Virus genome (UHGV): UHGV-0195737
Length of the DNA stretch: 58,116 nt
Source: a virus
Reading direction: 5' to 3' (one strand)
Shown: positions 1,932-42,186 of the stretch, piece by piece
Position numbering within the stretch: the first letter of the stretch is position 1
Layout: every line of letters begins with the position of its first letter
Notes under the pieces: generated by a model
Told to the model about the DNA's origin: nothing
What the model saw: the letters and a program-made list of their open reading frames with translations, nothing else
The model's database searches: none
Program-made: the position numbers and the translations under genes

Positions 1932-4900
1932 TTAAACCTTTTCGAATAATTGCCCGTCGGTTAGCGCTTTGTGCCAGATACGGAAATTGCGGATGTGTCC
2001 GAATAAGTGGCGCTCACCTGTTGATGTTTGACCGCCGAATCTGATGTTTTTGTCCTGAGTTACTCCACCGTAAGAACATGTTGCATCTGCAACGGCTACA
2101 CCATTCATGATTACATGGAAAGTATCATCATCTTTAACTACCGCACCAATAATGGCCTTATTTGGCAATACGGAAGCGGCGGCGGAATTGATATAAGCTC
2201 CGTCACTTTTGGATAGAGACATGTAATACTTATCGCTACCACGGTTAACCGCAGCGATAACGCCCTGCCCCGTATTAGCGTTGGCAATATCAAAAACACG
2301 CGGCGCGGCGTTTGGCGCTCTGAACCAGTCCTTGTGAAGCTCGATCAGGAAACTGAACGGAGGACGCGCAAGGTTGTTTTTAGTCGTAATGCTTACTAGA
2401 TCGCTCGCACGGGTAGAAGGAGTTGAACCTGAGCAAATATACGATGATGCATTCGGGCCAAGCTCGACTTGAGGTGTCGCTAGTTCCATGTAGTCGCCGG
2501 ACACGAACGCGCTAACCGGAGCAAGCTGAATTTGTGCAGTAACCAGCGTTACGGTTGATTTATACGTCACCACTGCGCGATTCCATCCGGTGATGTTGTC
2601 TGTTGTTACACTAACAGTGATATTGTCTGCACCGCCGCCTGCTTTCGTTACAGTCATGTCGCTTAGTTTGATATACGCATCACACAGGAATGCCAGGCTG
2701 GAAGTATCTTCACCACCAGCAAAACGGATACGCAACCGGACGTCGCTTGACGAACGAAAACGACAAGAAACCGTGACGTACTGTTCATCGTGCTGAGTAG
2801 TGTCGATAACGTTAGCAGTGATCACTGATGCCATGTTGCAAGCACCAGTACCGCCAACTGCACTGTCGTCGATCACGAATTTTCCGTACAGGAAACCGTA
2901 GCTGTCAGTTTCTGCTGTAGCGGTGATATTAGTTGATCGGCCCCAACTTGCAGGAACGCTACCGTTAATAAAGAAGTTTGTGCGAGTACCTTCAATTAAT
3001 AATCCCTCGCGTTCGAAACGTGGCTCATCAATATCAGCAATGGTTAAAACACCGGATTTATTAATATAAGTCGCAGTGCTGGCGCGGGCGAAGCCCACCA
3101 CTTTATCCGACGGGATGGATGTGGTTTCGTCGTTAACCGTTACTTTCTTATAGCCAGGAGCGAAGCCTGCCAGCATATCAAGTGAATCGTTAAACGGTAT
3201 CCATACGTCAGGAAATGGTGCTTCTTCATGAATAAGTGGATCGGATTCGAATTTAGCCCAATCCGTCCAGGTTTCCAAATTGGCGTAATAGGTGCGCATG
3301 TAATACAAACCCGTCGAATTGTACGGGTAATATAATTGCGTGGCCCCGTTTGTATAGTTGCCGTTTTTCAGTACAACCAGTGCACCACCATATTTGCATG
3401 GGTAATGCAGTTCGGTTGTTGCTTTTGATGATGCGCCCTGCCAGTAAACACCGGAATAAGCGGCGGTAAGCGTATCCAGATCGGTGTCAGCTAGTGAGCT
3501 TTTTTGTTCGTGCATAGCGGCAAGGTTGGTGCGGGCCGTGGCTGCATCGTTTGCACCTGTACCACCATGTGATAAATCAAGCGGAATCCATTTTGATTGA
3601 GTGTCGCTATAACAGCCCCACGATGTTCCAGTAAGCCCTAAACGCATAGATGAATCTGCGTTATATACCCAGGTTTCACTACCCCATTGAGCAAGGCGAT
3701 CTACTTTTAAGTTTTCTCTTGCTTCGTCGACTGTTACAGCCCCTGTGCCGCCCTGTTCAATAGCTAACGCCTTCCAGCAATTATCAACCGGACTGTAATA
3801 ACCCCAGCGGCCCGTCGCGTCGAGCTGAAGATAGCACCCTGCTGTCGAGTCGTCCATAGAATAAACTACTGTCCGATTGCTGCCGCTTTGATTAAATCGA
3901 CTAACCTCATTTTTTCTTGCGTGTCGCGTCCATTGTGGGCCAGTGCTTTCACTCCAACGATAAGTATAAAGCGAGCGTGTCCCCCACCCCTGGAAAATGC
4001 CTGTATATGATGGCGAACCATCGTTTACGCTAATGAAGCCTGTTAGATATGCTTCACCGTCCGCGACGTCTTCGGGCCATCCGGTGACGCCTTCGCGAAT
4101 ACGAATAAAGCCAATGTAAGCGGCGGGATTGCCGGAAATATCGGCGCAATCGCGCGGGGCGTTAGTTAGACCAATGTCACCCAATAACACACCAGAACTA
4201 AGAAAACGCGCCCATTCTGACCATGTGAAAGTTGCCGCATCAAAACTACGAAGATAAAACGAAGCATTATAGTTATAAGGGTAATAAATTTGCGTGCATC
4301 CAGAATCAGTATTAGCACTATTCCCAATCACAACAAGCGCACCCGCATTATTGCACGGATAATGGCGATCAGTAGTAGCTTGCGCGTTGAGTTTTTGGCG
4401 ATAAAAACCGGAATACTCGCCCGTGAGCGTATCCAGATCCGTGTCAGCAAGATCGGTTTTTTGCTCGTACATTACTTGTAAATTTGTGCGGGCTTGTCCG
4501 GCGTTACCGCCGCCCGTACCACCATAATTGATGCCTAACTTAATTGCCCCATCAACTGAATAAGCACCCCACCCCGTATTATTCACGAAGATGTAATTTT
4601 GGCCCACGCCGTCCCATAACTGCGTTTCGCCTGTTGAGTTACTCGTCTGCAATAAGCGGCTTACTTCATCCTTCCGGGCGTGACGTGTCCAGCCGTAAGT
4701 CCCATCGGCATTGTTATACATGTATGTATAAAGTGAGCGCGTGTTAGTTCCCACAAAACAGCCGTTAATGATCAGGCCGTCACCGCGTGCCAGCCAGCCT
4801 ACCAAGTAGACTTCACCGGAAGCGATAGACGGGAAACCCGTTGCGGTCGCCTCTTCCAGACGAACAAAGCCAATATAGGCTGATGGGTTAACTGTGCAAT

Positions 4901-5909
4901 CAGGCCAATCACGGCGATCAGCACCCAGGCCAATAAGAGATAGTGAATCTTCTGATAGTGATTTTGCTTGCTCCATGTAGGTTTTGGCGTTCGCTTCCGA
5001 AAGTGCGGCGGCGGTGGCTGATTCTGCGGCGGCGGCGGCATTAGCTGCAATTTCTTGTTCGTCTTCTGCAACATTGGCGGCGCTTGTTTCGGCAGCAGTG
5101 GCGGCTTCTGTAGCGATGGTGGCTTGTTCGGTTGCTGTGGTCGCTGATTCTGCGGCGTTATTCATCCAGATGTACGCCGTGCCGCGATGATCTTTTGCCT
5201 CTGCGGCGGCGGCCGCGGCGGCGGTGGCTTGTTCGGTCGCTACGGCTGCCTGTTCAGTTGCGACGGTTGCTTGCGCGGCGGCTTCGTCACGGGCCGTTTC
5301 GGTAGCGGTCTGCGCGGTCTGCGCGGCGCTGGCGGCATTAGTGGCGATGGTGGCTTGTTCGGTTGCCGTGGTCGCCTGCGTGGTGGCGGTGGCGGCATGT
5401 TTCCCAGCCAGTACGCTGTAATCTTCTGCGGCATTTTTCGCGGTAATAGCTTCATCCCGCGCGGCGGCGGTTGTTTCAACGTCTGCGGCGGTCGCGGCGG
5501 CGTTGGCGTTTGATTGCGCTGTTTCTGCCTGAATAGCGGCTAACAGTGCTTCAACCTGCGCGGCATCACCATAATTTTTCCAGTATTCGACGGCAGCATA
5601 GATCTCTGATTCTTGTCCGGTGAAATAGCGCAATGCCTCCGCTACGTCCTGGGCCAGCCCGTCAACCGAGATCGAATCGCACAGCAAAATACTGTAAGCA
5701 GTACCCGCCGGAATATCCGGTGATGCTGCCGGGGTTACAGACAATTCCGTTTCACTGACAATTTCAGTGATAGAAAAGATCTGAATGGGGTTACTTTTTA
5801 CGATAACAGTACACCCCACGCGGATCATGGATAGCGGCGCTTTAAAATTCGTACCCGTCCCGGTCAGCGTGTTACCGGATACGGCAATGCTTCCAATGGT
5901 GTAGATCAT
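1932..5909 (-). CDS. Long tail fibre protein, repeat-rich
   Basis: 1325 aa; Ala/Thr/Gln-rich low-complexity segment; two tandem copies of a ~250-aa module (TRHARK-EVSR, HYPC-GALVV-YYPYN). Confidence 0.65.
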   Translation of the reverse strand: MIYTIGSIAVSGNTLTGTGTNFKAPLSMIRVGCTVIVKSNPIQIFSITEIVSETELSVTPAASPDIPAGTAYSILLCDSISVDGLAQDVAEALRYFTGQESEIYAAVEYWKNYGDAAQVEALLAAIQAETAQSNANAAATAADVETTAAARDEAITAKNAAEDYSVLAGKHAATATTQATTATEQATIATNAASAAQTAQTATETARDEAAAQATVATEQAAVATEQATAAAAAAAEAKDHRGTAYIWMNNAAESATTATEQATIATEAATAAETSAANVAEDEQEIAANAAAAAESATAAALSEANAKTYMEQAKSLSEDSLSLIGLGADRRDWPDCTVNPSAYIGFVRLEEATATGFPSIASGEVYLVGWLARGDGLIINGCFVGTNTRSLYTYMYNNADGTYGWTRHARKDEVSRLLQTSNSTGETQLWDGVGQNYIFVNNTGWGAYSVDGAIKLGINYGGTGGGNAGQARTNLQVMYEQKTDLADTDLDTLTGEYSGFYRQKLNAQATTDRHYPCNNAGALVVIGNSANTDSGCTQIYYPYNYNASFYLRSFDAATFTWSEWARFLSSGVLLGDIGLTNAPRDCADISGNPAAYIGFIRIREGVTGWPEDVADGEAYLTGFISVNDGSPSYTGIFQGWGTRSLYTYRWSESTGPQWTRHARKNEVSRFNQSGSNRTVVYSMDDSTAGCYLQLDATGRWGYYSPVDNCWKALAIEQGGTGAVTVDEARENLKVDRLAQWGSETWVYNADSSMRLGLTGTSWGCYSDTQSKWIPLDLSHGGTGANDAATARTNLAAMHEQKSSLADTDLDTLTAAYSGVYWQGASSKATTELHYPCKYGGALVVLKNGNYTNGATQLYYPYNSTGLYYMRTYYANLETWTDWAKFESDPLIHEEAPFPDVWIPFNDSLDMLAGFAPGYKKVTVNDETTSIPSDKVVGFARASTATYINKSGVLTIADIDEPRFEREGLLIEGTRTNFFINGSVPASWGRSTNITATAETDSYGFLYGKFVIDDSAVGGTGACNMASVITANVIDTTQHDEQYVTVSCRFRSSSDVRLRIRFAGGEDTSSLAFLCDAYIKLSDMTVTKAGGGADNITVSVTTDNITGWNRAVVTYKSTVTLVTAQIQLAPVSAFVSGDYMELATPQVELGPNASSYICSGSTPSTRASDLVSITTKNNLARPPFSFLIELHKDWFRAPNAAPRVFDIANANTGQGVIAAVNRGSDKYYMSLSKSDGAYINSAAASVLPNKAIIGAVVKDDDTFHVIMNGVAVADATCSYGGVTQDKNIRFGGQTSTGERHLFGHIRNFRIWHKALTDGQLFEKV
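4990..5520. repeat. GC-rich tandem coding repeats inside fibre gene
   Basis: Repeated GGTGGCTTGTTCGGT-type units encoding AT(E/A)QAT-like repeats. Confidence 0.5.
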
Positions 5910-5952
5910 TGCAATGACTCCATTATGTTAATTAACGGAATAATTCTACCAT

Positions 5953-5968
5953 TTTGTGATCTATGTTA
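5953..5968. promoter_or_regulatory. CRP-like palindrome upstream of lipoprotein gene
   Basis: TGTGA-N6-TTACA about 100 bp upstream of the 6069 start, next to CCATTTTGT/ACAAAATG inverted repeat. Confidence 0.25.
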
Positions 5969-6068
5969 CATTTCTGGTTTATACAAAATGTGTTTGTTGA
6001 TTTACATCAATGTTGTAAAAATGCGGTTTATGGATACTACAACCAACGAAACAACGGAGGGTAAGACA

Positions 6069-6308
6069 ATGAAAGGTTTAAAAAATATCGCTATCGCTGC
6101 AATGGTTGCTGGTCTGGTTGGTTGTGCTGATATGCCAAAACGTGAATGTACAGCAATCTATCAAACTGGCGGTAATGAATATGCGGTTGCAGTCTTTGGC
6201 GTTGCAGATGTTGGCGGTCACAAAATGGTTAAGGCCGGGTATCCGTTCAATTTCCAATGGGTGAGCGTTGACCACTTCAAGAAAACGGATTGCCCGGAAC
6301 TGAATTAA
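6069..6308 (+). CDS. Small lipoprotein (moron; possible superinfection-exclusion lipoprotein)
   Basis: Start moved to internal ATG with SD GGAGGG; signal peptide with lipobox LVGC; opposite strand to flanking tail genes. Confidence 0.5.
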   Translation: MKGLKNIAIAAMVAGLVGCADMPKRECTAIYQTGGNEYAVAVFGVADVGGHKMVKAGYPFNFQWVSVDHFKKTDCPELN

Positions 6309-6904
6309 TCATAGGCGTCGGTTTTAATGGCGGTGATAGCGTTCCCGTGGTTAATGTAGCTGTAAGCCTGCTGCAAGCTACCAACCTGTTTTCCGCGAAT
6401 TCGTGTAGTGCTGCCGTTGTAGTATGCCTCTGTATATATTGTTGCAGAACCCATACCTACAACGGCCCCTAATATCTGAGGCACTACCGCATAAGATCCT
6501 GATAATGTTTGATCGATATAAATCCCCCCGCTCGATCCCGCCGTGCCTACTGTAACAAGGTCGGTTAATATTTTTGATTCATTGGTCAGTACCAATTCCC
6601 CGGAAGCGTTCCAGATAGCCATCCCCCATCTCGGCAGCGATGGCGGGAAGATGCTGAATATATACGCATACCCGTTACCAGGCGGGATCACTACCGTAGA
6701 TGATGATGCGCGATAAGCAAGCCCCGTGGCGGTGTCGTCGGTGTTTTTGATGAATACCATTACAGGCTTGCCGTCGGGTACAGCGATCGTTTGTTGCTGG
6801 CTGGAATTTAAGGCCACCCGCGAATATAAACACATCGGGGTAGAATCCGGCGTCACAAAAATATTGCCATTATCCAGGCGTAAATAAGCGCCAAAAGTAG
6901 CCAT
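6305..6904 (-). CDS. Hypothetical tail-associated protein (MATFG family)
   Basis: 199 aa; shares N-terminal MATFG with the next gene; SD ACGGAG. Confidence 0.4.
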   Translation of the reverse strand: MATFGAYLRLDNGNIFVTPDSTPMCLYSRVALNSSQQQTIAVPDGKPVMVFIKNTDDTATGLAYRASSSTVVIPPGNGYAYIFSIFPPSLPRWGMAIWNASGELVLTNESKILTDLVTVGTAGSSGGIYIDQTLSGSYAVVPQILGAVVGMGSATIYTEAYYNGSTTRIRGKQVGSLQQAYSYINHGNAITAIKTDAYD

Positions 6905-7265: not shown

Positions 7266-10200
7266 TTACCATGATCCGGTAATTCGCCCAATCTGGACGC
7301 GTAACACGCTATTTCCATCTCTGACAGAGATTGTTGTGTTCGTCCATTTCATCGCTCCTTCACCGCTTACTGATCCGTAGTTTTCGAATGTACCGGATTT
7401 ATCCAGCTTCCAGCCAGTACTACCGGAAACATAGTTATTTGACTGGATGTAAGATCCAATTTTCGCGTTAGTGATTGAGGCGTCTTTAATAAACGCTTCG
7501 CGCACATACATTGCACCATTTGTGACATAGAAAGGCGTTGTATATGTGCCGTTTGCCGCTGTCATTAATACAAAGCGGTCAGCAAGGAAAATACATTGCG
7601 ATTGCGTACTCGTACCGCTGCCAGTCAAGCCAAGCGAGATCCCGGAAAAATATTTCATGCCGTTGTTGTCTGCGGCGATCTTAACGCTCCACGTTGCCGA
7701 CATGTCGGTTTCAAGGCCAGCGATGGCGGTTTTATTTTCCTCAATTGATACCGATTGCCCCTCGATTGACGCCGTAATACTTTCAATCTGCGTGGCGGTC
7801 GATTCCTTATAGGTTGTAAACGCTTCGCTCCACTCCGTGATCGACGCCTCGTTTGCTTCCAGCGATGCGCTAATTTCCGCAAACTGAGTAGCATTAGCTT
7901 GTTCATGGGTGGCAAGCGCGGATTGCATTTCGGTAATAGCTGCCGCCACATCGTCGTCTATTTGCGCCTGTAGTTGCTCCAGCTTCTGCGCGGTTGCTTG
8001 TTCATTGGTTGCGATCGTCTGATTAGTTTCAGTGATTGCAGCCTCATTCTCATCAATCTGACTTTGCAGGCTATTAAACTGCGTAGCGTTGGCTTTTTCG
8101 TGGGTAGCGAGTGCTTGCTCCATGTTGCTTATTGCTGACGATATATCACCATCTACTTTAGCCTCAAGGTTGCTAATAGATTCAGATGTGGATGATTCCA
8201 GATCGGTGATCGTCTGGTTAATCTCCGTTATGCTTGCCTGAATATCTTCGTTGACCTGGCTTTCTAATTTTTCGATCGACTGGCTTGTCGAACTTTCAAG
8301 CGTTGCAATGGTTTGTTGCAGTTCGGTTACGTTGGCGCTGATTTCGTCATTGACCTTGCTTTCGAGTGTCGTAAGCGCCTGCGCGGTCGCTTCTTTCTCT
8401 GTAGCGATCACAGTGTCGATGCGCTCAATCTCCGCCTTCGTTTCTGCTTTCTGGTTTTTATACTGTGCCGTCAACGTGGTGCGCGTGCTGGTGTTAGCCA
8501 GTGAGTTATTCATAAGCGCAATAGCTGCGTTTTGCAGGCTGGCGCGTGTCTGGATTAGTTCATTTTCCTGTTCAGTTAACTCGACGCTGATTTCGTTGAT
8601 CTGGCTTTCATGTTCTCCAATTCCATCCTCATTGTTTTTCACGCGTTCTTCCAGGTCTGCGGTCGATTCTTTCAGATCGGTAACAGCCTGGTCAATATCT
8701 ACCGTGGTTTGTTTCAGTTCTTCCACATCGCCCATCAAGCCGCCTGTTACCTCGTCGATGGTTTCTTTAATCATGTCCTGAAATTGCTCACCCTCCATAA
8801 CTTCATTCAGCACGGCATCCGTGATTTCTTCGAAGTTTTCGGACGGCTTACCACTGGCTTCGATAAAGTCAGATACGCCGAAAGCGTTTTTTGTGCGCAC
8901 GTAAACGTAATACGTGTGGCCCGTTGCCATCCCGCCAAAAGTCCACTGATAGCCGCGCCCGGAAAATTGCGCTGATGTTGTTACCAGTGAGAAGTCAGTA
9001 ATCTGGTTTTCTCCAGCGTAATAGAATTCGTAAGTAGTATCAGTCGTTAGCGTGCTGTTGCTGATCGGGTAAACAGTCGCCTGAAAAACACCTGGCACCC
9101 AATTAACACCAGTCGGCGCGGCAGGCGCACCAACAATAAGATCTACCAGTGTTTCCGCTCCCTTCATCCCGGTGTCATTGCGCCCACGAATACCAAGCGA
9201 ATAATTACCGCACTCAAGGCCGAAAAAGTCATACCGGTAATTTTGCGTTTCGTAGCTCGCCACCACGCGCCCGTCGGTGTCATAAATGCGGATCTCAAAG
9301 GTTAATGCGCGGGTAGTGGTTTGAGTTTCCCAGGTGGCGCGGCATTGAACTGTTTCCGATCCAATGTTTATCACTTTCAGGTTTTCGATGTTCGGTACAC
9401 GGAAGTGATTCAGCGTGTCGCTGTTAACCTCAAAGATTGCGCCCTCATCGACAACCGCTTGCTTGTTCGGATCGTGCTGCGCGGCCTCAATGGTGTATAC
9501 GCTGTTATTTTCGGTTTCGGCTACGCTAGTGATTCGACATAAAACGGGTTTTGCCGCTTCGGTTGATACAGCAAATACAGTACCGTTCCGAATCCATGCC
9601 GGGGCCGCCGCTAAGGTGATCTCGTTTCCATTCACTCCGGTGATCTGGTGTTTTTTAAATTTACCATCGCTATCGAGCAAGCTGATGGTGTCGCCTGCCG
9701 TAATGTACTCGCTATCAACCTTATCAACCGTTATCACGTTCCCGTTATTCGCCACGATACGACCGCCTAAACGCGCGCCAGCACGGTTATTATCGAGAAT
9801 CTCGATAATATCCCCTGGTGTAAAGTGAATCGCGTCACGGGCCATTTTAAACGTGAATTTCGACGGCTCGCGTTTTGCTGTTTCTATCAGCCATTTGCCC
9901 GCGCGGTACGCTTGCCCGCGTGATGTACAGCCGAACGCCTCCAGTGTGGTTTCATTGTAACCATCGCGGGCGATTAGCTCATCATCCGCTACATACTCTT
10001 TTGATTGCTCCCAGCCGTTTTCCGGATCAGTCCAGGATACAATCACGGCGTTGTAACATTCCGCACGCGCAATGCTTGAACGGGTGAATGCACCATCAAC
10101 GACGTTTGCGTTTGTGATGGTTGCAATCGGATCTTGCGGTGCATCGAGCATTACAGTAAGTGTTTGACCGTCCCATAACGCAATCCCCCGGAACATTCCG

Positions 10201-11243
10201 GCAATGTTGTCCAGTAAGTCGCGGGCGCTCATTTGCTCCGTAATGTATGCATTAAGCGTCACGCGCGGCTCAAGGCCGCCATAACCATCGTCAACCAACT
10301 GATCGCAGTATTGGGAAAGCGTGTATAATGCGCCGTCGTCAACGTCAATATAACCAGCATGGCGGGCAAGGCCAAAACGCTCGTTTTTAACCAGATACCG
10401 GAAGATCCACGCTGGGTTATTGGTGTACACCTGTTTCATCCCGCCCAGCCATAAACCGGAATAAGTGCGCGTTTCCGGATCGTAGTTATCCGGTACATCA
10501 ACAATCAGGCCACGCATGTGATAAGTGCGTGTCGGCGTGTCGGTATACTGGTCATGATCAATCACCGCGCCCGCTACAGCGGTGTGAGGATAAGACAAGT
10601 TATCGTCGATAATTTCACTGTAGCTATTCCAGCGGGTATCATTCTGCAATAGATCGCCCGTGCTGTCAGGTGTTATGCGGCGAACGCGAATATCGAACGG
10701 TTTTTCGTCCGGCGCATCAATGATGTGTGATTCCAGATATTCACCGCTAATCTTACCCGGACCGATTTGCACGGCCTTAATCGCCGACCAGATTGATGAT
10801 GATGATGGTTTTACATCAATCGCCATAAAAACTGATGTTTCATGCTGGTTTGATTCGCTGTCACTTTCCACCAGTGAATCCACGCCAATATTCAACCGGA
10901 CGCGCGTCACGTTCGGATCTGATACCGTCCTTACCAGTGGCGTGTCATATTTCACCTGCGCGTTAACCATTACCGTAGATTCAATGGCGTTGAAGCCGTT
11001 GATCGGTGACTGGTCGGCAGTACCCGGACGCCAGGCGACGCTAACGCCTGGGATACTGGTATTACCCACGGCATCCGTAACAGGTGTGTCATTAAGCATT
11101 ACGCAGTTTAACGGGGCAGCGGTATTGACCGGACCGTAAATCGGCCCTTCACTCAATATATCCAGAACCCGGTAAAATTGCTTATGAAATAAATTGTCGT
11201 TTATTAATGTTGGTGTTTTTGCTTTACCACCGCCGCCGCCCAT
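7266..11243 (-). CDS. J: Host specificity / tail tip protein J-like
   Basis: N-terminus matches lambda J as recalled (DxxSEGPIxGPV, NDTPV); long central coiled-coil repeat region; position after I. Confidence 0.8.
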   Translation of the reverse strand: MGGGGGKAKTPTLINDNLFHKQFYRVLDILSEGPIYGPVNTAAPLNCVMLNDTPVTDAVGNTSIPGVSVAWRPGTADQSPINGFNAIESTVMVNAQVKYDTPLVRTVSDPNVTRVRLNIGVDSLVESDSESNQHETSVFMAIDVKPSSSSIWSAIKAVQIGPGKISGEYLESHIIDAPDEKPFDIRVRRITPDSTGDLLQNDTRWNSYSEIIDDNLSYPHTAVAGAVIDHDQYTDTPTRTYHMRGLIVDVPDNYDPETRTYSGLWLGGMKQVYTNNPAWIFRYLVKNERFGLARHAGYIDVDDGALYTLSQYCDQLVDDGYGGLEPRVTLNAYITEQMSARDLLDNIAGMFRGIALWDGQTLTVMLDAPQDPIATITNANVVDGAFTRSSIARAECYNAVIVSWTDPENGWEQSKEYVADDELIARDGYNETTLEAFGCTSRGQAYRAGKWLIETAKREPSKFTFKMARDAIHFTPGDIIEILDNNRAGARLGGRIVANNGNVITVDKVDSEYITAGDTISLLDSDGKFKKHQITGVNGNEITLAAAPAWIRNGTVFAVSTEAAKPVLCRITSVAETENNSVYTIEAAQHDPNKQAVVDEGAIFEVNSDTLNHFRVPNIENLKVINIGSETVQCRATWETQTTTRALTFEIRIYDTDGRVVASYETQNYRYDFFGLECGNYSLGIRGRNDTGMKGAETLVDLIVGAPAAPTGVNWVPGVFQATVYPISNSTLTTDTTYEFYYAGENQITDFSLVTTSAQFSGRGYQWTFGGMATGHTYYVYVRTKNAFGVSDFIEASGKPSENFEEITDAVLNEVMEGEQFQDMIKETIDEVTGGLMGDVEELKQTTVDIDQAVTDLKESTADLEERVKNNEDGIGEHESQINEISVELTEQENELIQTRASLQNAAIALMNNSLANTSTRTTLTAQYKNQKAETKAEIERIDTVIATEKEATAQALTTLESKVNDEISANVTELQQTIATLESSTSQSIEKLESQVNEDIQASITEINQTITDLESSTSESISNLEAKVDGDISSAISNMEQALATHEKANATQFNSLQSQIDENEAAITETNQTIATNEQATAQKLEQLQAQIDDDVAAAITEMQSALATHEQANATQFAEISASLEANEASITEWSEAFTTYKESTATQIESITASIEGQSVSIEENKTAIAGLETDMSATWSVKIAADNNGMKYFSGISLGLTGSGTSTQSQCIFLADRFVLMTAANGTYTTPFYVTNGAMYVREAFIKDASITNAKIGSYIQSNNYVSGSTGWKLDKSGTFENYGSVSGEGAMKWTNTTISVRDGNSVLRVQIGRITGSW

Positions 11244-13167: not shown

Positions 13168-13299
13168 TTTCTCACCTTTCGATTTTGTGATCTGCGTCAC
13201 GCTAAATCGCGCCAAAATGGATTGATCGCGATTTTTACAATATGTATATTTTACTCAAACGAAGGGGAAGTTAACAAAACGGCATAAAAGGGGTACGGG

Positions 13300-13467
13300 A
13301 TGAACGATAAGCTATGGCGGCTAACCTTGTTTATGAGTAGCGGGCGTGATGTTGAGGCTGAATTCGATAATCCCAGCGACGCATTGGAAACAGCTCTCGA
13401 CCTGTCAGAAAAAGATGATCGCGTCCTGGGCTACCGGATTAAACCGATTAAAAACGGGGATCAGTAG
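13300..13467 (+). CDS. Hypothetical small protein (moron cassette b)
   Basis: 55-aa ORF, not in ORF track; SD AAAGGGG; first gene of plus-strand cassette. Confidence 0.4.
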   Translation: MNDKLWRLTLFMSSGRDVEAEFDNPSDALETALDLSEKDDRVLGYRIKPIKNGDQ

Positions 13468-13468
13468 G

Positions 13469-13819
13469 ATGCAAAAATATAAGCTCGAAGTGTTTACGGA
13501 TCGGTGCAATTGGGAATGTATAGGTTTATATGACACAGACGTTAAAGCACATACGGAAGGGCGAGAACTGCTGCGATGTTGGTCTAATGCCCGCGACTAT
13601 GTGGTCACTCCAGTACAAATAGCGGAAAAGGTGGAAGATATGAAATACGATATTGATAACAATGCTTGTTTTAAAGAAAACCTTGCGGATTCTATGGATC
13701 AATCTTGCCCGGAAATACACGCGCACGGTTTCCCGGCAGACGACCCGAAAGCAAAACAGGAATACGAAAAAGCGGCAAAAGATTTCTGCATCGATAACCT
13801 GGGCGCTTTCAATAAATAA
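13469..13819 (+). CDS. Hypothetical protein (moron cassette b)
   Basis: 116 aa from internal ATG of track ORF 13346-13819; coupled to upstream ORF. Confidence 0.5.
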   Translation: MQKYKLEVFTDRCNWECIGLYDTDVKAHTEGRELLRCWSNARDYVVTPVQIAEKVEDMKYDIDNNACFKENLADSMDQSCPEIHAHGFPADDPKAKQEYEKAAKDFCIDNLGAFNK

Positions 13820-13828
13820 GGTGGCAGT

Positions 13829-14077
13829 ATGGCGCGGCGTAATCACGGAGACTATGTATACACGTTGAAACAAGCCGCCCGCCTTATCGGTTATCATGAG
13901 CACGAATTTATTGATTTGCTGATTGAGCGCGGGATTTTGTACCAGGTCTGTTTAACGCTGTACCCGAAAGCGAAATATTTGCAGGAAAAGTTATTCATCA
14001 TCATGACGGATGAAAACCAGGTTAATCATTCATTCGTCACTGACAAGGGCGTTAATTATCTGCGTGATAACCTGTAG
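13829..14077 (+). CDS. Putative small DNA-binding protein (excisionase/HTH_17-like)
   Basis: 82 aa; YTLKQAARLIGYHEHEFIDLLIERGIL resembles Xis/AlpA-type HTH. Confidence 0.4.
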   Translation: MARRNHGDYVYTLKQAARLIGYHEHEFIDLLIERGILYQVCLTLYPKAKYLQEKLFIIMTDENQVNHSFVTDKGVNYLRDNL

Positions 14078-14085
14078 GACCGCAT

Positions 14086-14289
14086 ATGTTAAAGTACGAC
14101 GGGCAAGAAACAGTCAGGTTTACTGGTTTTACTAAGGGGAACAATAAGGAGCTAACAGAATATTTTAGCTTAGATATTGGCGATGTTTACCGAGTAGAAA
14201 AATACTTACCCTCAATTAATTCTTTCATAATCATTAACAAAGAAAATCAAGGGGTGCTTGTTACATTCAACGAAGTGGAGTTGCCTTAA
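14086..14289 (+). CDS. Hypothetical protein (moron cassette b)
   Basis: 67-aa ORF in operon-like spacing. Confidence 0.4.
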   Translation: MLKYDGQETVRFTGFTKGNNKELTEYFSLDIGDVYRVEKYLPSINSFIIINKENQGVLVTFNEVELP

Positions 14290-15216: not shown

Positions 15217-15245
15217 ACATCTTTACGCGTTGCTACGCGAAAAAT
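15217..15245. repeat. 29-bp conserved hairpin element, copy 1
   Basis: ACATCTTTACGCGTTGCTACGCGAAAAAT; 28/29 identical to 27307-27335; upstream of M. Confidence 0.5.
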
Positions 15246-15356
15246 GAGATATTCATCACAAGAATTATAACCAGTTTACAAAATGGCTTCACACAGGACG
15301 CAACAAGATGTATATAGAAAGCAAGAAGAAAGCAGTACCAACAAAGGAGGCCCAAG

Positions 15357-15524
15357 ATGAAAGGCAACGATAAACACTACGCAGTCGTAATGCTTAACGA
15401 CGCATTCGAACAAGTAGAAGTAGCGATTGTTAAAGGCTTCGATGATGCGTTCAAAATGGGCCAGTTCTACATGAACGTGAAAGCAAACGAATATCGGGAT
15501 TTCTACCTGAAAGCGGTCAACTAA
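15357..15524 (+). CDS. Hypothetical small protein (moron cassette c)
   Basis: 55-aa ORF with strong SD AAGGAGG; not in ORF track. Confidence 0.45.
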   Translation: MKGNDKHYAVVMLNDAFEQVEVAIVKGFDDAFKMGQFYMNVKANEYRDFYLKAVN

Positions 15525-18462: not shown

Positions 18463-18500
18463 GATTTAACCTCATACAAAATGTGATCTGTGCCTCTATT

Positions 18501-18593: not shown

Positions 18594-18818
18594 ATGAAAC
18601 GTTATGATGGTATCTATGAAAAAATTGGTGGCTTCCACAAAGGCGAACAATTTAAAATCATCGACGGCGAAGTGTACGCCGGGAGAAACAATAACAAGGA
18701 ATGGGAGCACATTGATCACCCAGCACAAAAGGAAGCCTGGTTGAGATTAGTTAAAGGGTTTCAAGTCGGCAATAGAATCATTAAAGACAAAAACATTGTA
18801 AAAATTGCTGATATTTAA
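18594..18818 (+). CDS. Hypothetical protein (moron cassette d)
   Basis: 74-aa ORF with SD GTGGGGG. Confidence 0.45.
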   Translation: MKRYDGIYEKIGGFHKGEQFKIIDGEVYAGRNNNKEWEHIDHPAQKEAWLRLVKGFQVGNRIIKDKNIVKIADI

Positions 18819-18829
18819 CGGGGTGTTTT

Positions 18830-19183
18830 ATGAAACGGTTAGCGAAAGTAGTAATGATGGTGGCGCTGGTTGGTTTTGCATTTAACGCCCACGCCGACGA
18901 TAAAATGGATAAGGCTATTTATGAATGCGCTCACGCCGCGCACCTGTACGACATAAGACACGGTGACGGTACGGGGTATAAAGAAATTATTTTTGACATG
19001 GCGTGTAAACAAAAAGCCTTAATACCATTTCTTGACAAGGAAATAGTTAAAGCAAGAAAAATACACGAAAAATACGAAGCATTGAAAGCGGAAAATAAAG
19101 ATCCCGAAGTCGCGGAAGTGTTCAGACATGGAGAAATAAAGGGGCACGCAATCCATAACAGAATCAACGCTGGCGCGGCCTAA
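18830..19183 (+). CDS. Secreted/periplasmic protein of unknown function
   Basis: 117 aa; signal peptide ending AFNAHA-DD; conserved Cys pair. Confidence 0.5.
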   Translation: MKRLAKVVMMVALVGFAFNAHADDKMDKAIYECAHAAHLYDIRHGDGTGYKEIIFDMACKQKALIPFLDKEIVKARKIHEKYEALKAENKDPEVAEVFRHGEIKGHAIHNRINAGAA

Positions 19184-38556: not shown

Positions 38557-38635
38557 TATACAAAATGGATACGCCCGGACAAGATGAAAAGCGCCATTAT
38601 GTGACGCTCATCACACAATGACGCCATTTTGTAAA
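38557..38635. promoter_or_regulatory. Intergenic element A with CRP-consensus palindrome
   Basis: TACAAAATGG...TGTGACGCTCATCACA...CCATTTTGTA; ~80% identical to element at 42417-42475. Confidence 0.4.
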
Positions 38636-41967: not shown

Positions 41968-42186
41968 TCACGCCTCCAGTAAGCCATAATCGAATTTTCC
42001 AAGATATTGCTCGATACCAATCATCTCGACACCCTGGACTTCCGCGCCCCATACAGTTACGTGATAAGCGTCCTCCCGCCATTGTTCGTGGCTTAACACT
42101 TCGTTTGCCGGATATTTCCGCCCGGCGACGTAAGCGCCCGGACCTACGCCACCCTCTACGCAATGCAGCATGATTTGGTTTTCCAT
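41968..42186 (-). CDS. Hypothetical protein
   Basis: ATG with SD GGGGTGGA; the overlapping Arg-rich track ORF 41867-42163 is judged spurious. Confidence 0.4.
   Translation of the reverse strand: MENQIMLHCVEGGVGPGAYVAGRKYPANEVLSHEQWREDAYHVTVWGAEVQGVEMIGIEQYLGKFDYGLLEA

Follow-up and report, generated by a model that had tools for sequence, protein, structure and literature searches.

The lipoprotein gene and its product

The window, i.e., the whole stretch of DNA analysed here, is the virus genome UHGV-0195737 (58,116 nucleotides). The analysis deals with a small lipoprotein gene located at 6069-6308 of this window, antisense to the tail genes around it, and with the 159-bp spacer (5910-6068) that it shares with a divergent side tail fibre gene. 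The original prediction, made from the letters alone, had described at this place a 79-residue lipoprotein with an LVGC lipobox, and both are seen in the list of open reading frames (ORFs) and in the sequence. From its sequence, the gene is cor, a typical representative of an already known phage family whose lipoproteins close the iron-uptake receptor FhuA to other phages. The features discussed below are collected in Table 1.

Two profile models support this assignment: (i) the NCBIfam equivalog NF047972 (lamb_exclu_cor, «phage exclusion lipoprotein Cor») matches residues 7-75 with 54.6 bits for a cut-off of 31; (ii) PHROG 1119 («Cor superinfection exclusion protein») matches residues 5-76 with E=1.3e-23. 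Homologues are detected by tblastn in 229 of 50,697 phage records, the majority of them annotated Cor. The nearest relatives are the Cor proteins of T1-like Drexlerviridae/Dhillonvirus phages (about 59-64% identity), and the proteins of HK022 and of the mEp and HK lambdoid phages are at 33-36% in the same search. When eight sequences are aligned, HK022 Cor and ES18 gp32 are 35-41% identical to the window protein, the value of 41% being that of ES18 gp32. E. coli prophages with 88-91% DNA identity contain the same gene in the same antisense layout, under the PGAP name cor.

The residues C19, C27, C75, G57, P59 and F60 are invariant in 100 homologues, and A56, Y58, W64 and V65 are nearly invariant; all of these except the Cys residues belong to the AGYPFN(F/W)xWV motif. 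The Cys triad and the AGYPFN-x-x-WV motif are also seen in the alignment of eight sequences with HK022 and ES18.

A few matches are found under unexpected names. The records «Campylobacter phage A14a/A15b/A16a» and «Pseudomonas phage Motto» contain a T1-like Cor (52-63% identical) and are probably coliphage-type genomes with unexpected host labels. The sole match in a genome contig (40% identity to Cor residues 7-58) is located in a Paeniglutamicibacter metagenome-assembled genome (L009, 4001-4150); this actinobacterial match is probably due to chance or to a mis-binned contig.

Read from ATG 6069, the N-terminus is MKGLKNIAIAAMVAGLVGC followed by ADMPK..., with the lipobox L-V-G-C ending at Cys19; written with its lipobox, the product starts MKGLKNIAIAAMVAGLVGCADMPK.... 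The junction MKGLKNIAIAAMVAGLVG followed by C-A-D fits the Sec/SPII (signal peptidase II) pattern [LVI][ASTVI][GAS]C. The residue at +2 is Ala, not Asp, and the protein is therefore without an inner-membrane retention signal. On the basis of the lipobox and of this Ala, the product is predicted to be a lipoprotein sorted to the outer membrane. The mature form has 61 residues, among them Cys27 and Cys75.

The coordinates first proposed for the gene, 5925-6308, are correct for an in-frame ORF of 127 codons on the + strand, of which the final 79 begin at ATG 6069. They do not hold as the coding sequence (CDS), which is likely 6069-6308. The 127-residue form was rejected as a gene-caller artefact: ATG 5925 has no Shine-Dalgarno sequence and falls inside the 5' leader of the divergent tail fibre gene, the extension crosses the conserved promoter region and would bury the signal peptide, and the gene is called at 79 residues in most relatives. 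A GGAGG(G/A) Shine-Dalgarno sequence is kept at all Cor-type loci. Longer versions are found in other annotations: PGAP gives cor in the 127-residue form in E. coli M15 (L003, NZ_CP185789.1), and several metagenome gene calls use forms of 106 or 127 residues. In the same E. coli M15 locus, IS903B is inserted just upstream of the cor spacer (1947-3410).

A structural model was built with AlphaFold2 on the alignment of 100 sequences and compared by Foldseek with 350,542 PDB chains. The model is a small five-strand beta fold, with a mean predicted local distance difference test (pLDDT) value of 79, and of about 90 for the mature domain. The first-ranked chain is 8a60_B, i.e., T5 Llp bound to FhuA (probability 1.00, E=0.049); the superposition has a target-normalised template modelling (TM) score of 0.57 and a root-mean-square deviation of 2.8 A over 51 columns. 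Cor and Llp are treated in the literature as one fold for which the same mechanism is expected (PMC9586334, bioRxiv 10.64898/2026.03.26.714494, PMC13164509). The earlier suggestion, namely an exclusion lipoprotein that blocks a receptor as Cor and Llp do, is supported by the two Cor models, and the predicted fold is nearest to that of Llp. As a sequence relative, Llp was rejected since the similarity is not significant, and it is retained as a structural and mechanistic analogue.

Phage group, neighbouring genes and receptor

The DNA around the lipoprotein slot matches mEp013, mEp044, mEp554, mEp010, mEp021, mEp515 and MagusPhagus, and the window also encodes a CI-type repressor, replication genes and an integrase. 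The window is a temperate siphophage of the mEp021-like (mEpimmI) group. Its lipoprotein gene is found, on the opposite strand, in the interval from J to the side tail fibre gene, which is the layout of the mEpimmI exclusion slot. A lipoprotein gene of one of four sequence types occupies this slot in 40 of 48 members of the group (PMC11893012). Type A (mEp021) excludes OmpA-dependent members and type C (mEp010) excludes LamB-dependent members plus lambda; the other two types are without exclusion test in that paper, where «Cor» is found only in the reference list (PMC11893012). It is proposed here, as a new assignment, that one of these other mEpimmI lipoprotein types is Cor and hence directed to FhuA; the phages with this type are therefore predicted to use FhuA. 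Two mEpimmI relatives (the IMG/VR contigs L041 and L025) have no lipoprotein gene, and in them J, with another C-terminal domain, comes directly after the spacer.

The two genes between J and cor (PHROG 557 and PHROG 425) complete with it the three-gene «extended cor cassette». The position of the 199-residue gene matches those of ES18 gp31 and of the herni equivalents. The extended cassette is reported only in FhuA users (T1, HK022, N15, ES18, phi80 and 10 BASEL phages), whereas the Cor-like genes of BtuB users lack one or both partner membrane-protein genes (PMC13164509). FhuA is the experimentally determined receptor of Bas05, Bas09, Bas15 and Bas17 (BASEL supplement), and the Cor proteins of these four phages are 53-63% identical to that of the window. 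Over its C-terminal 278 residues, J has 40-44% identity with its counterparts in T1 and in the cor+ lambdoid phages mEp043 and mEp213. It is likely that FhuA is both the receptor of the phage and the protein blocked by the phage's Cor.

The cor gene and the 199-residue gene converge and their stop codons overlap (TTAA, 6305-6308). The consensus scan detects no intrinsic terminator in 5700-6500, and none between these two genes, so that the cor and late transcripts must cross each other antisense. The tail fibre gene has GGAG as its Shine-Dalgarno sequence (5918-5921, reverse complement). GCC/GCG-rich repeats at 4800-5500 encode a coiled part of the tail fibre that is rich in Ala and Thr; numerous spurious ORFs arise from them on either strand, and the k-mer statistics are dominated by them. 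Rfam and tRNA scans of the window give no match.

Table 1. Position of cor, of the elements in its spacer and of the neighbouring genes in the window
Feature	Position	Strand	Remarks
cor, 79-residue prolipoprotein	6069-6308	+	ORF list, sequence, PHROG 1119, NCBIfam NF047972
cor signal peptide	residues 1-18		lipobox LVGC; codon of Cys19, predicted to be lipidated, at 6123-6125
Shine-Dalgarno GGAGGG	6056-6061	+	strong; 7 nt before ATG 6069; read from sequence
-10-like hexamer GATACT	6033-6038	+	GATATT in LamB-type; 22 nt after FNR box; transcription start site about 6045, predicted
FNR consensus TTGAT-TTAC-ATCAA (TTGATTTACATCAA)	5997-6010	+	exact match, centre 6003.5; predicted class II site, -41.5
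CRP-like palindrome TGTGATCTATGTTACA	5955-5970	+	centre 5962.5; one mismatch to TGTGA-N6-TCACA
Inverted repeat CATTTTGT / ACAAAATG	5950-5957 / 5983-5990		8-nt arms, 25 nt between
Copies of the CATTTTGT/ACAAAATG 8-mer	5950, 5983, 6220, 12440, 15207, 15278, 15682, 18476, 18505, 18531, 22233, 32347, 38560, 38625, 42444, 45989, 46330, 47085, 47137, 51047		
Possible extended -10 promoter TGGTAGAAT	5943-5951	-	tail fibre gene, leftward; TGGTAAAAT in some relatives
Side tail fibre, 1325 residues	1932-5909	-	divergent from cor; PHROGs 1419, 6578, 1591
«Membrane-associated protein», 199 residues	6305-6904	-	extended cor cassette; PHROG 425, E=2.5e-49
«Outer membrane protein», 103 residues	6904-7215	-	extended cor cassette; PHROG 557, E=2.7e-28; equivalent to ES18 gp30
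J, central tail fibre / host-specificity protein	7266-11243	-	PHROG 31, E=0

The spacer between cor and the tail fibre gene

As cor runs antisense to the late tail operon, a promoter of its own is required, which has to be located within 5910-6068. The FNR consensus TTGAT-N4-ATCAA, overlooked in the original prediction, is found there as an exact match, the single one in 58 kb (0.11 expected). With respect to the -10-like hexamer downstream, this FNR box would be a class II site; 19 of 23 FNR-activated E. coli promoters have their site at -41.5 +/- 4 (Myers et al., PMC3688515). The consensus scan finds neither a -35 hexamer nor a sigma-70 promoter in 5700-6500. The missing -35 hexamer is as expected, because the promoter would be activator-dependent.

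The conservation of this region was followed in the spacers of nine loci, and then in 26 distinct variants recovered regardless of the downstream part. The TTGA...TCAA cores are kept in 23 of the 26 intergenic variants and the six central positions vary (central forms TTAC, TTAT, TTTT, TTGT and CTGT; A or G at the tenth position). GGATAyT is invariant, and its distance from the FNR box is the same in the two cassette types (GGATACT for Cor, GGATATT for LamB), whereas the 22-bp stretch between the two elements is only about half identical between these types. The pair formed by the FNR box and the -10-like element thus precedes the Cor-type genes as well as the unrelated LamB-type lipoprotein genes (PHROG 12984). 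The box is degenerate (TTGATTTATGCCAA, CCAA right core) in L041, a relative without lipoprotein gene. The FNR box was also considered, and rejected, as part of a leftward promoter: the - strand has no -10-like element at class II or class I distance.

FNR-dependent activation of cor, from a predicted start site, is considered rather probable. It is proposed more tentatively, at somewhat under even chances, that one shared FNR class II promoter, possibly with CRP, drives a swappable receptor-specific cargo (Cor for FhuA, type-C Lpp for LamB), exclusion then taking place mainly in the anaerobic gut. That two exclusion-lipoprotein cassettes have an FNR-dependent class II promoter in common would be a new prediction. 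A brief literature search turned up no FNR-controlled exclusion gene, and PMC11893012 has no mention of the native lipoprotein-gene promoter, FNR or CRP.

The TGTGA-N6-TTACA palindrome described in the original prediction as roughly 100 bp upstream of the gene is present at 5955-5970, with its centre 106 nt before the ATG. This CRP-like site is located at -82.5 from the predicted cor start and 41 bp upstream of the FNR centre. It is also at about -26.5 from the possible leftward tail-fibre promoter, i.e., between the -35 and -10 positions of that promoter. The latter, TGGTAGAAT on the - strand, was not called by the consensus scan, having no -35 hexamer; it could restart tail-fibre transcription. 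The right half of the CRP-like site reads TTACA in the window; about half of the relatives have TTGCA instead (two core mismatches), and TGCGA is found in one locus. CRP-like sites with at most one mismatch number 7 in the window vs. 1.2 expected.

The inverted repeat noted beside the palindrome stands for its 8-nt arms, the ninth base claimed for it being unpaired. By itself, such a repeat of 8 bp would not stand out in an AT-rich spacer of 160 bp. Its right arm, ACAAAATGT, is invariant in 26 of 26 spacer variants. The 8-mer itself is present in 20 copies in the window vs. about 2 expected, and 14 of these copies are intergenic. Inverted pairs of the motif often flank TGTGA-N6-TCACA-like palindromes (5955, 15245, 38600, 42460 and 47124). 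Once an alanine-repeat artefact is set aside, CCATTTTGTA, extended to CCATTTTGTA(A/T)A(C), comes first among the over-represented 10-mers. The 8-mer motif is found at equivalent positions in mEp021, and even this phage keeps the block 5910-5991, although it differs in the FNR box and in the cargo. Both the CRP-like site and the inverted repeat are regarded as non-random and as part of a phage-wide element. Because these motifs are over-represented across the whole phage, the reading of the site as a target of host CRP is weakened, and a host CRP switch for cor is a weak proposal.

The cor-proximal repeat was rejected as an RNA hairpin, terminator or attenuator, since it folds like shuffled sequences on both strands (z=-0.3 and -0.1). 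The sole perfect CRP-consensus palindrome of the window (38600-38615) is the core of a hairpin located at 38570-38625 on the - strand, with a 16-bp stem then a U run (-35 kcal/mol, z=-4.9). This hairpin is an intrinsic terminator and corresponds in position to mEp021 TERM_4. It also corresponds to the region where the literature places nutR2.

The sequence TGTGATCT is found at three places in the tail operon (5955, 13186 and 18482), and its copies at 5955 and 13186 are 110-160 bp upstream of confirmed opposite-strand genes. The - strand tail operon contains + strand islands at 13346-14289 and 15357-15524 (PHROGs 38567, 5689, 14327 and 29810, of unknown function); two more + strand ORFs at 18594-19183 have no PHROG match. 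The copy of TGTGATCT at 13186 is upstream of the 13346-14289 island and that at 18482 precedes the unmatched ORFs; about 100 bp upstream of the 15357-15524 island, at 15245, there is a CRP-like TGAGATATTCATCACA. Equivalent opposite-strand islands are found in mEp021, one of them with a putative antirepressor. At 15255-15285, on the - strand and toward the minor tail genes, a conserved perfect TATAAT comes 8 nt after a copy of CCATTTTGTAAAC; the same arrangement is seen in mEp021 (L045, about 42050-42080). This TATAAT may be a promoter restarting tail-gene transcription after the opposite-strand island. Within the cor spacer, TGTTAATTAA (5926-5935) is nearly invariant in relatives and overlaps with the tail fibre gene's 5' leader. 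It fits the 10-bp ArcA-P box, [A/T]GTTAATTA[A/T], as a possible site. Look-alikes of TyrR, OmpR, IHF and ArcA sites in this AT-rich spacer carry no weight in the readings given below.

Alternative readings, proposed mechanism and significance

It is possible, at roughly one chance in three, that the cor promoter is independent of FNR and that Cor is constitutive in the lysogen, TTGAT-N4-ATCAA being then the site of another protein (CRP, a phage regulator), an element of the divergent tail-fibre promoter or a conserved remnant without function. The classic cor genes are indeed lysogen-expressed morons for which oxygen control is not known, and several relatives have GTCAA or TAAA in the right half of the FNR box. 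FNR-like sites with one mismatch are over-represented in the window (10 vs. 3.4 expected, mostly intragenic), and AT-rich palindromes are therefore common in it. On the contrary, the exact consensus is unique in the window, its class II spacing to the conserved -10-like hexamer is exact where no -35 is present, the G-for-A variants still hold the TTGA-N6-TCAA core that FNR reads, and the discriminating first base of the box is T (FNR type) and not G (CRP type). It is unlikely that the CRP-like palindrome is a working cAMP-CRP site co-activating cor from -82.5 with FNR, in a class III arrangement like that of ansB. The palindrome has 16 of the 22 positions of the CRP consensus and a perfect left half TGTGATCTA; but its right half departs from the consensus here and further in the relatives, such palindromes are over-represented phage-wide and at least one of them (38600) is a terminator hairpin core, the site lies between the -35 and -10 positions of the possible leftward promoter, and a better host-regulator signal, i.e., the exact FNR box with class II spacing, is found 41 bp downstream. 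Rather more credible, though still short of an even chance, is that the CRP-like site and CATTTTGT/ACAAAATG form a phage-specific regulatory element (operator of a phage-encoded regulator, control region of promoters restarting tail-gene transcription past opposite-strand islands, or module boundary) concerning the tail fibre at least as much as cor. This would account for the number of copies, their intergenic location, the inverted pairs around palindromes, the equivalent positions in mEp021 and the recurrence of TGTGATCT upstream of opposite-strand genes, as well as for the block 5910-5991 being kept in mEp021 with another FNR region and another cargo. However, no protein or mechanism can be assigned to such an element, its contexts are heterogeneous (start codons, gene ends, terminators) and its spacing to -10 elements is not consistent.

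The product itself has been considered in the same manner. Cor-like proteins are reported in BtuB-using phages (PMC13164509) and the lipoproteins of the mEpimmI slot are receptor-specific cassettes for OmpA and LamB, so that a Cor-like lipoprotein blocking another receptor than FhuA, e.g., BtuB or another TonB-dependent transporter, may be imagined. It is improbable: the window has both partner genes, of which the BtuB-linked Cor-like genes lack one or both, and every experimentally typed phage with a close Cor homologue uses FhuA. A Bor-type serum-resistance lipoprotein, or a true product of 127 residues from 5925, is most improbable of all. Size and lipidation resemble Bor, which had led to the mention of the Bor class, and the long ORF is used by PGAP in E. 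coli M15 and by some metagenome calls. The Pfam search of the 79-residue protein returns nothing at E<=1, however, and the Cor models match strongly; Pfam contains a Lambda_Bor model, and Bor, for want of a match to it, is not supported. As to the long form, the arguments given above on its start codon, its signal peptide and the length of its relatives stand against it. For the three families against which an alignment had been suggested as a check, the searches are positive for Cor, not significant for the Llp sequence (E=0.16) and without a Pfam match for Bor.

FhuA exclusion by the cor of an mEpimmI phage, with a predicted FNR class II promoter, remains as a whole the very likely explanation, and several observations weigh against it. 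On the side of the promoter: (i) the FNR box is replaced by other sequence in mEp021 type A; (ii) no FNR box is found with up to 2 mismatches in the 260 bp upstream of HK022 and ES18 cor, and the T1-like phages have one 2-mismatch FNR-like remnant at -187 upstream of cor, so that FNR control is not a general property of Cor; (iii) the footprint comes from relatives that are close to one another and mosaic, and conservation is therefore weaker evidence than the counts suggest; (iv) nucleoid proteins can mask FNR sites in AT-rich foreign DNA (PMC3688515). On the side of the product, the Llp fold match is top-ranked yet statistically modest (E=0.049), and by sequence the profile of 100 homologues against PDB gives 8a60_B with E=0.16, mainly through the signal peptide. 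The study of Cor by Arguijo-Hernandez in 2018 reportedly implicated additional outer membrane proteins, and the Llp-like mechanism is therefore an analogy. Lastly, the C-terminal domain of J is merely about 40% identical to its T1 counterpart, for which reason the receptor is deduced from the cassette and not from J.

In mEp021 itself (L023, 1700-1762), the upstream block is kept up to ACAAAATGT and is followed by unrelated sequence with a perfect TATAAT. This suggests that the type-A (OmpA-linked) lipoprotein gene has a different, possibly constitutive, promoter.

The following course of events is proposed. As expected from its family, Cor would leave the cytoplasm, receive its lipid at Cys19 and end up in the outer membrane. 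It would then bind the ferrichrome transporter FhuA, most likely the terminal receptor of the phage itself, and make it unusable, so that FhuA-dependent phages, sister virions included, could no longer adsorb or inject. If T5 Llp is a guide, Cor should bind FhuA on its periplasmic face and cause an allosteric rearrangement of the surface loops. FhuA inactivation of the kind ascribed to the family would mean that T1, T5 and phi80 are excluded and that ferrichrome, colicin M and albomycin are no longer taken up. The cor promoter would be class II, activator-dependent and driven by host FNR, the upstream CRP-like site perhaps adding a cAMP-CRP input or belonging to the divergent tail-fibre promoter. 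Exclusion would be strongest in anaerobic (gut) conditions, where ferrous-iron uptake may make the loss of FhuA cheap. The iron supply of anaerobic E. coli relies on FNR-activated feoABC; blocking FhuA should therefore be less costly there, which is a speculation.

Several known systems resemble that of the window. The Cor proteins of phi80, HK022, N15 and mEp167 and ES18 gp32 have the same size (about 77-80 residues), the lipobox Cys, the Cys pair and AGYPFN(W/F)xWV. Their genes belong to temperate phages and come immediately after J, together with the same pair of membrane-protein genes; the function described for lambdoid Cor is FhuA inactivation and exclusion of FhuA-dependent phages. The layout of ES18, with cor on the opposite strand, is identical to that of the window, whereas cor is co-oriented with J in HK022. 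They differ by an identity of 35-41%, by the absence of the FNR box in HK022 and ES18 and by the window phage being a non-lambdoid mEpimmI phage. The T1-like lytic phages (Drexlerviridae, Dhillonvirus: herni, PeterMerian, KanT1 and others) have the closest sequences, the three-gene cassette and an opposite-strand cor, the layout of herni being exactly that of the window, and their typed members use FhuA. Unlike the window phage, which is temperate with repressor and integrase, they are virulent, and their Cor therefore acts during infection; their upstream region is unrelated save for the short TTGATTTATAT remnant at -187.

T5 Llp (PDB 8A60), the best structural match, is also a small outer-membrane lipoprotein, has an intramolecular disulphide and blocks FhuA from the periplasm, but it lies beside the pb5 receptor-binding gene of a lytic phage and its sequence similarity is not significant. 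Lpp021 and Lpp010 belong to the same phage group, and their genes occupy the same slot from J to the side tail fibre gene, also in opposite-strand orientation; exclusion of cognate-receptor phages is shown for both (PMC11893012). The LamB-type (type C) Lpp also has the same upstream block with FNR box and -10-like element. These lipoproteins differ by their families (PHROG 12984 and PHROG 4281 vs. PHROG 1119) and by their receptors, OmpA and LamB. Finally, the class II FNR promoters narG, dmsA and nirB have in common with the predicted cor promoter TTGAT-N4-ATCAA centred at -41.5, 22 bp to the -10 and no usable -35, and ansB, which FNR and CRP activate together, has a CRP-type site further upstream (PMC3688515). 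These four belong to chromosomal genes of anaerobic respiration or metabolism with mapped starts and proven FNR dependence, whereas the cor promoter is a prediction.

As a further allele of Cor, with about 60% identity to those known, the gene itself adds little. It does lead to one lipoprotein type of the mEpimmI phages, which are prevalent in the gut, being now identified as Cor. If FNR control is true, then: (i) oxygen would govern the resistance that the prophage confers, be it to phages dependent on FhuA or LamB or to colicin M, albomycin and microcin J25, as well as the accompanying loss of ferrichrome or maltodextrin uptake, which bears on phage-susceptibility assays for therapy and on the balance between protection and cost of the prophage; (ii) exclusion could largely escape standard aerobic plating assays; (iii) the loss of transporter function would cost little in the anaerobic gut, where exclusion would mainly be switched on.

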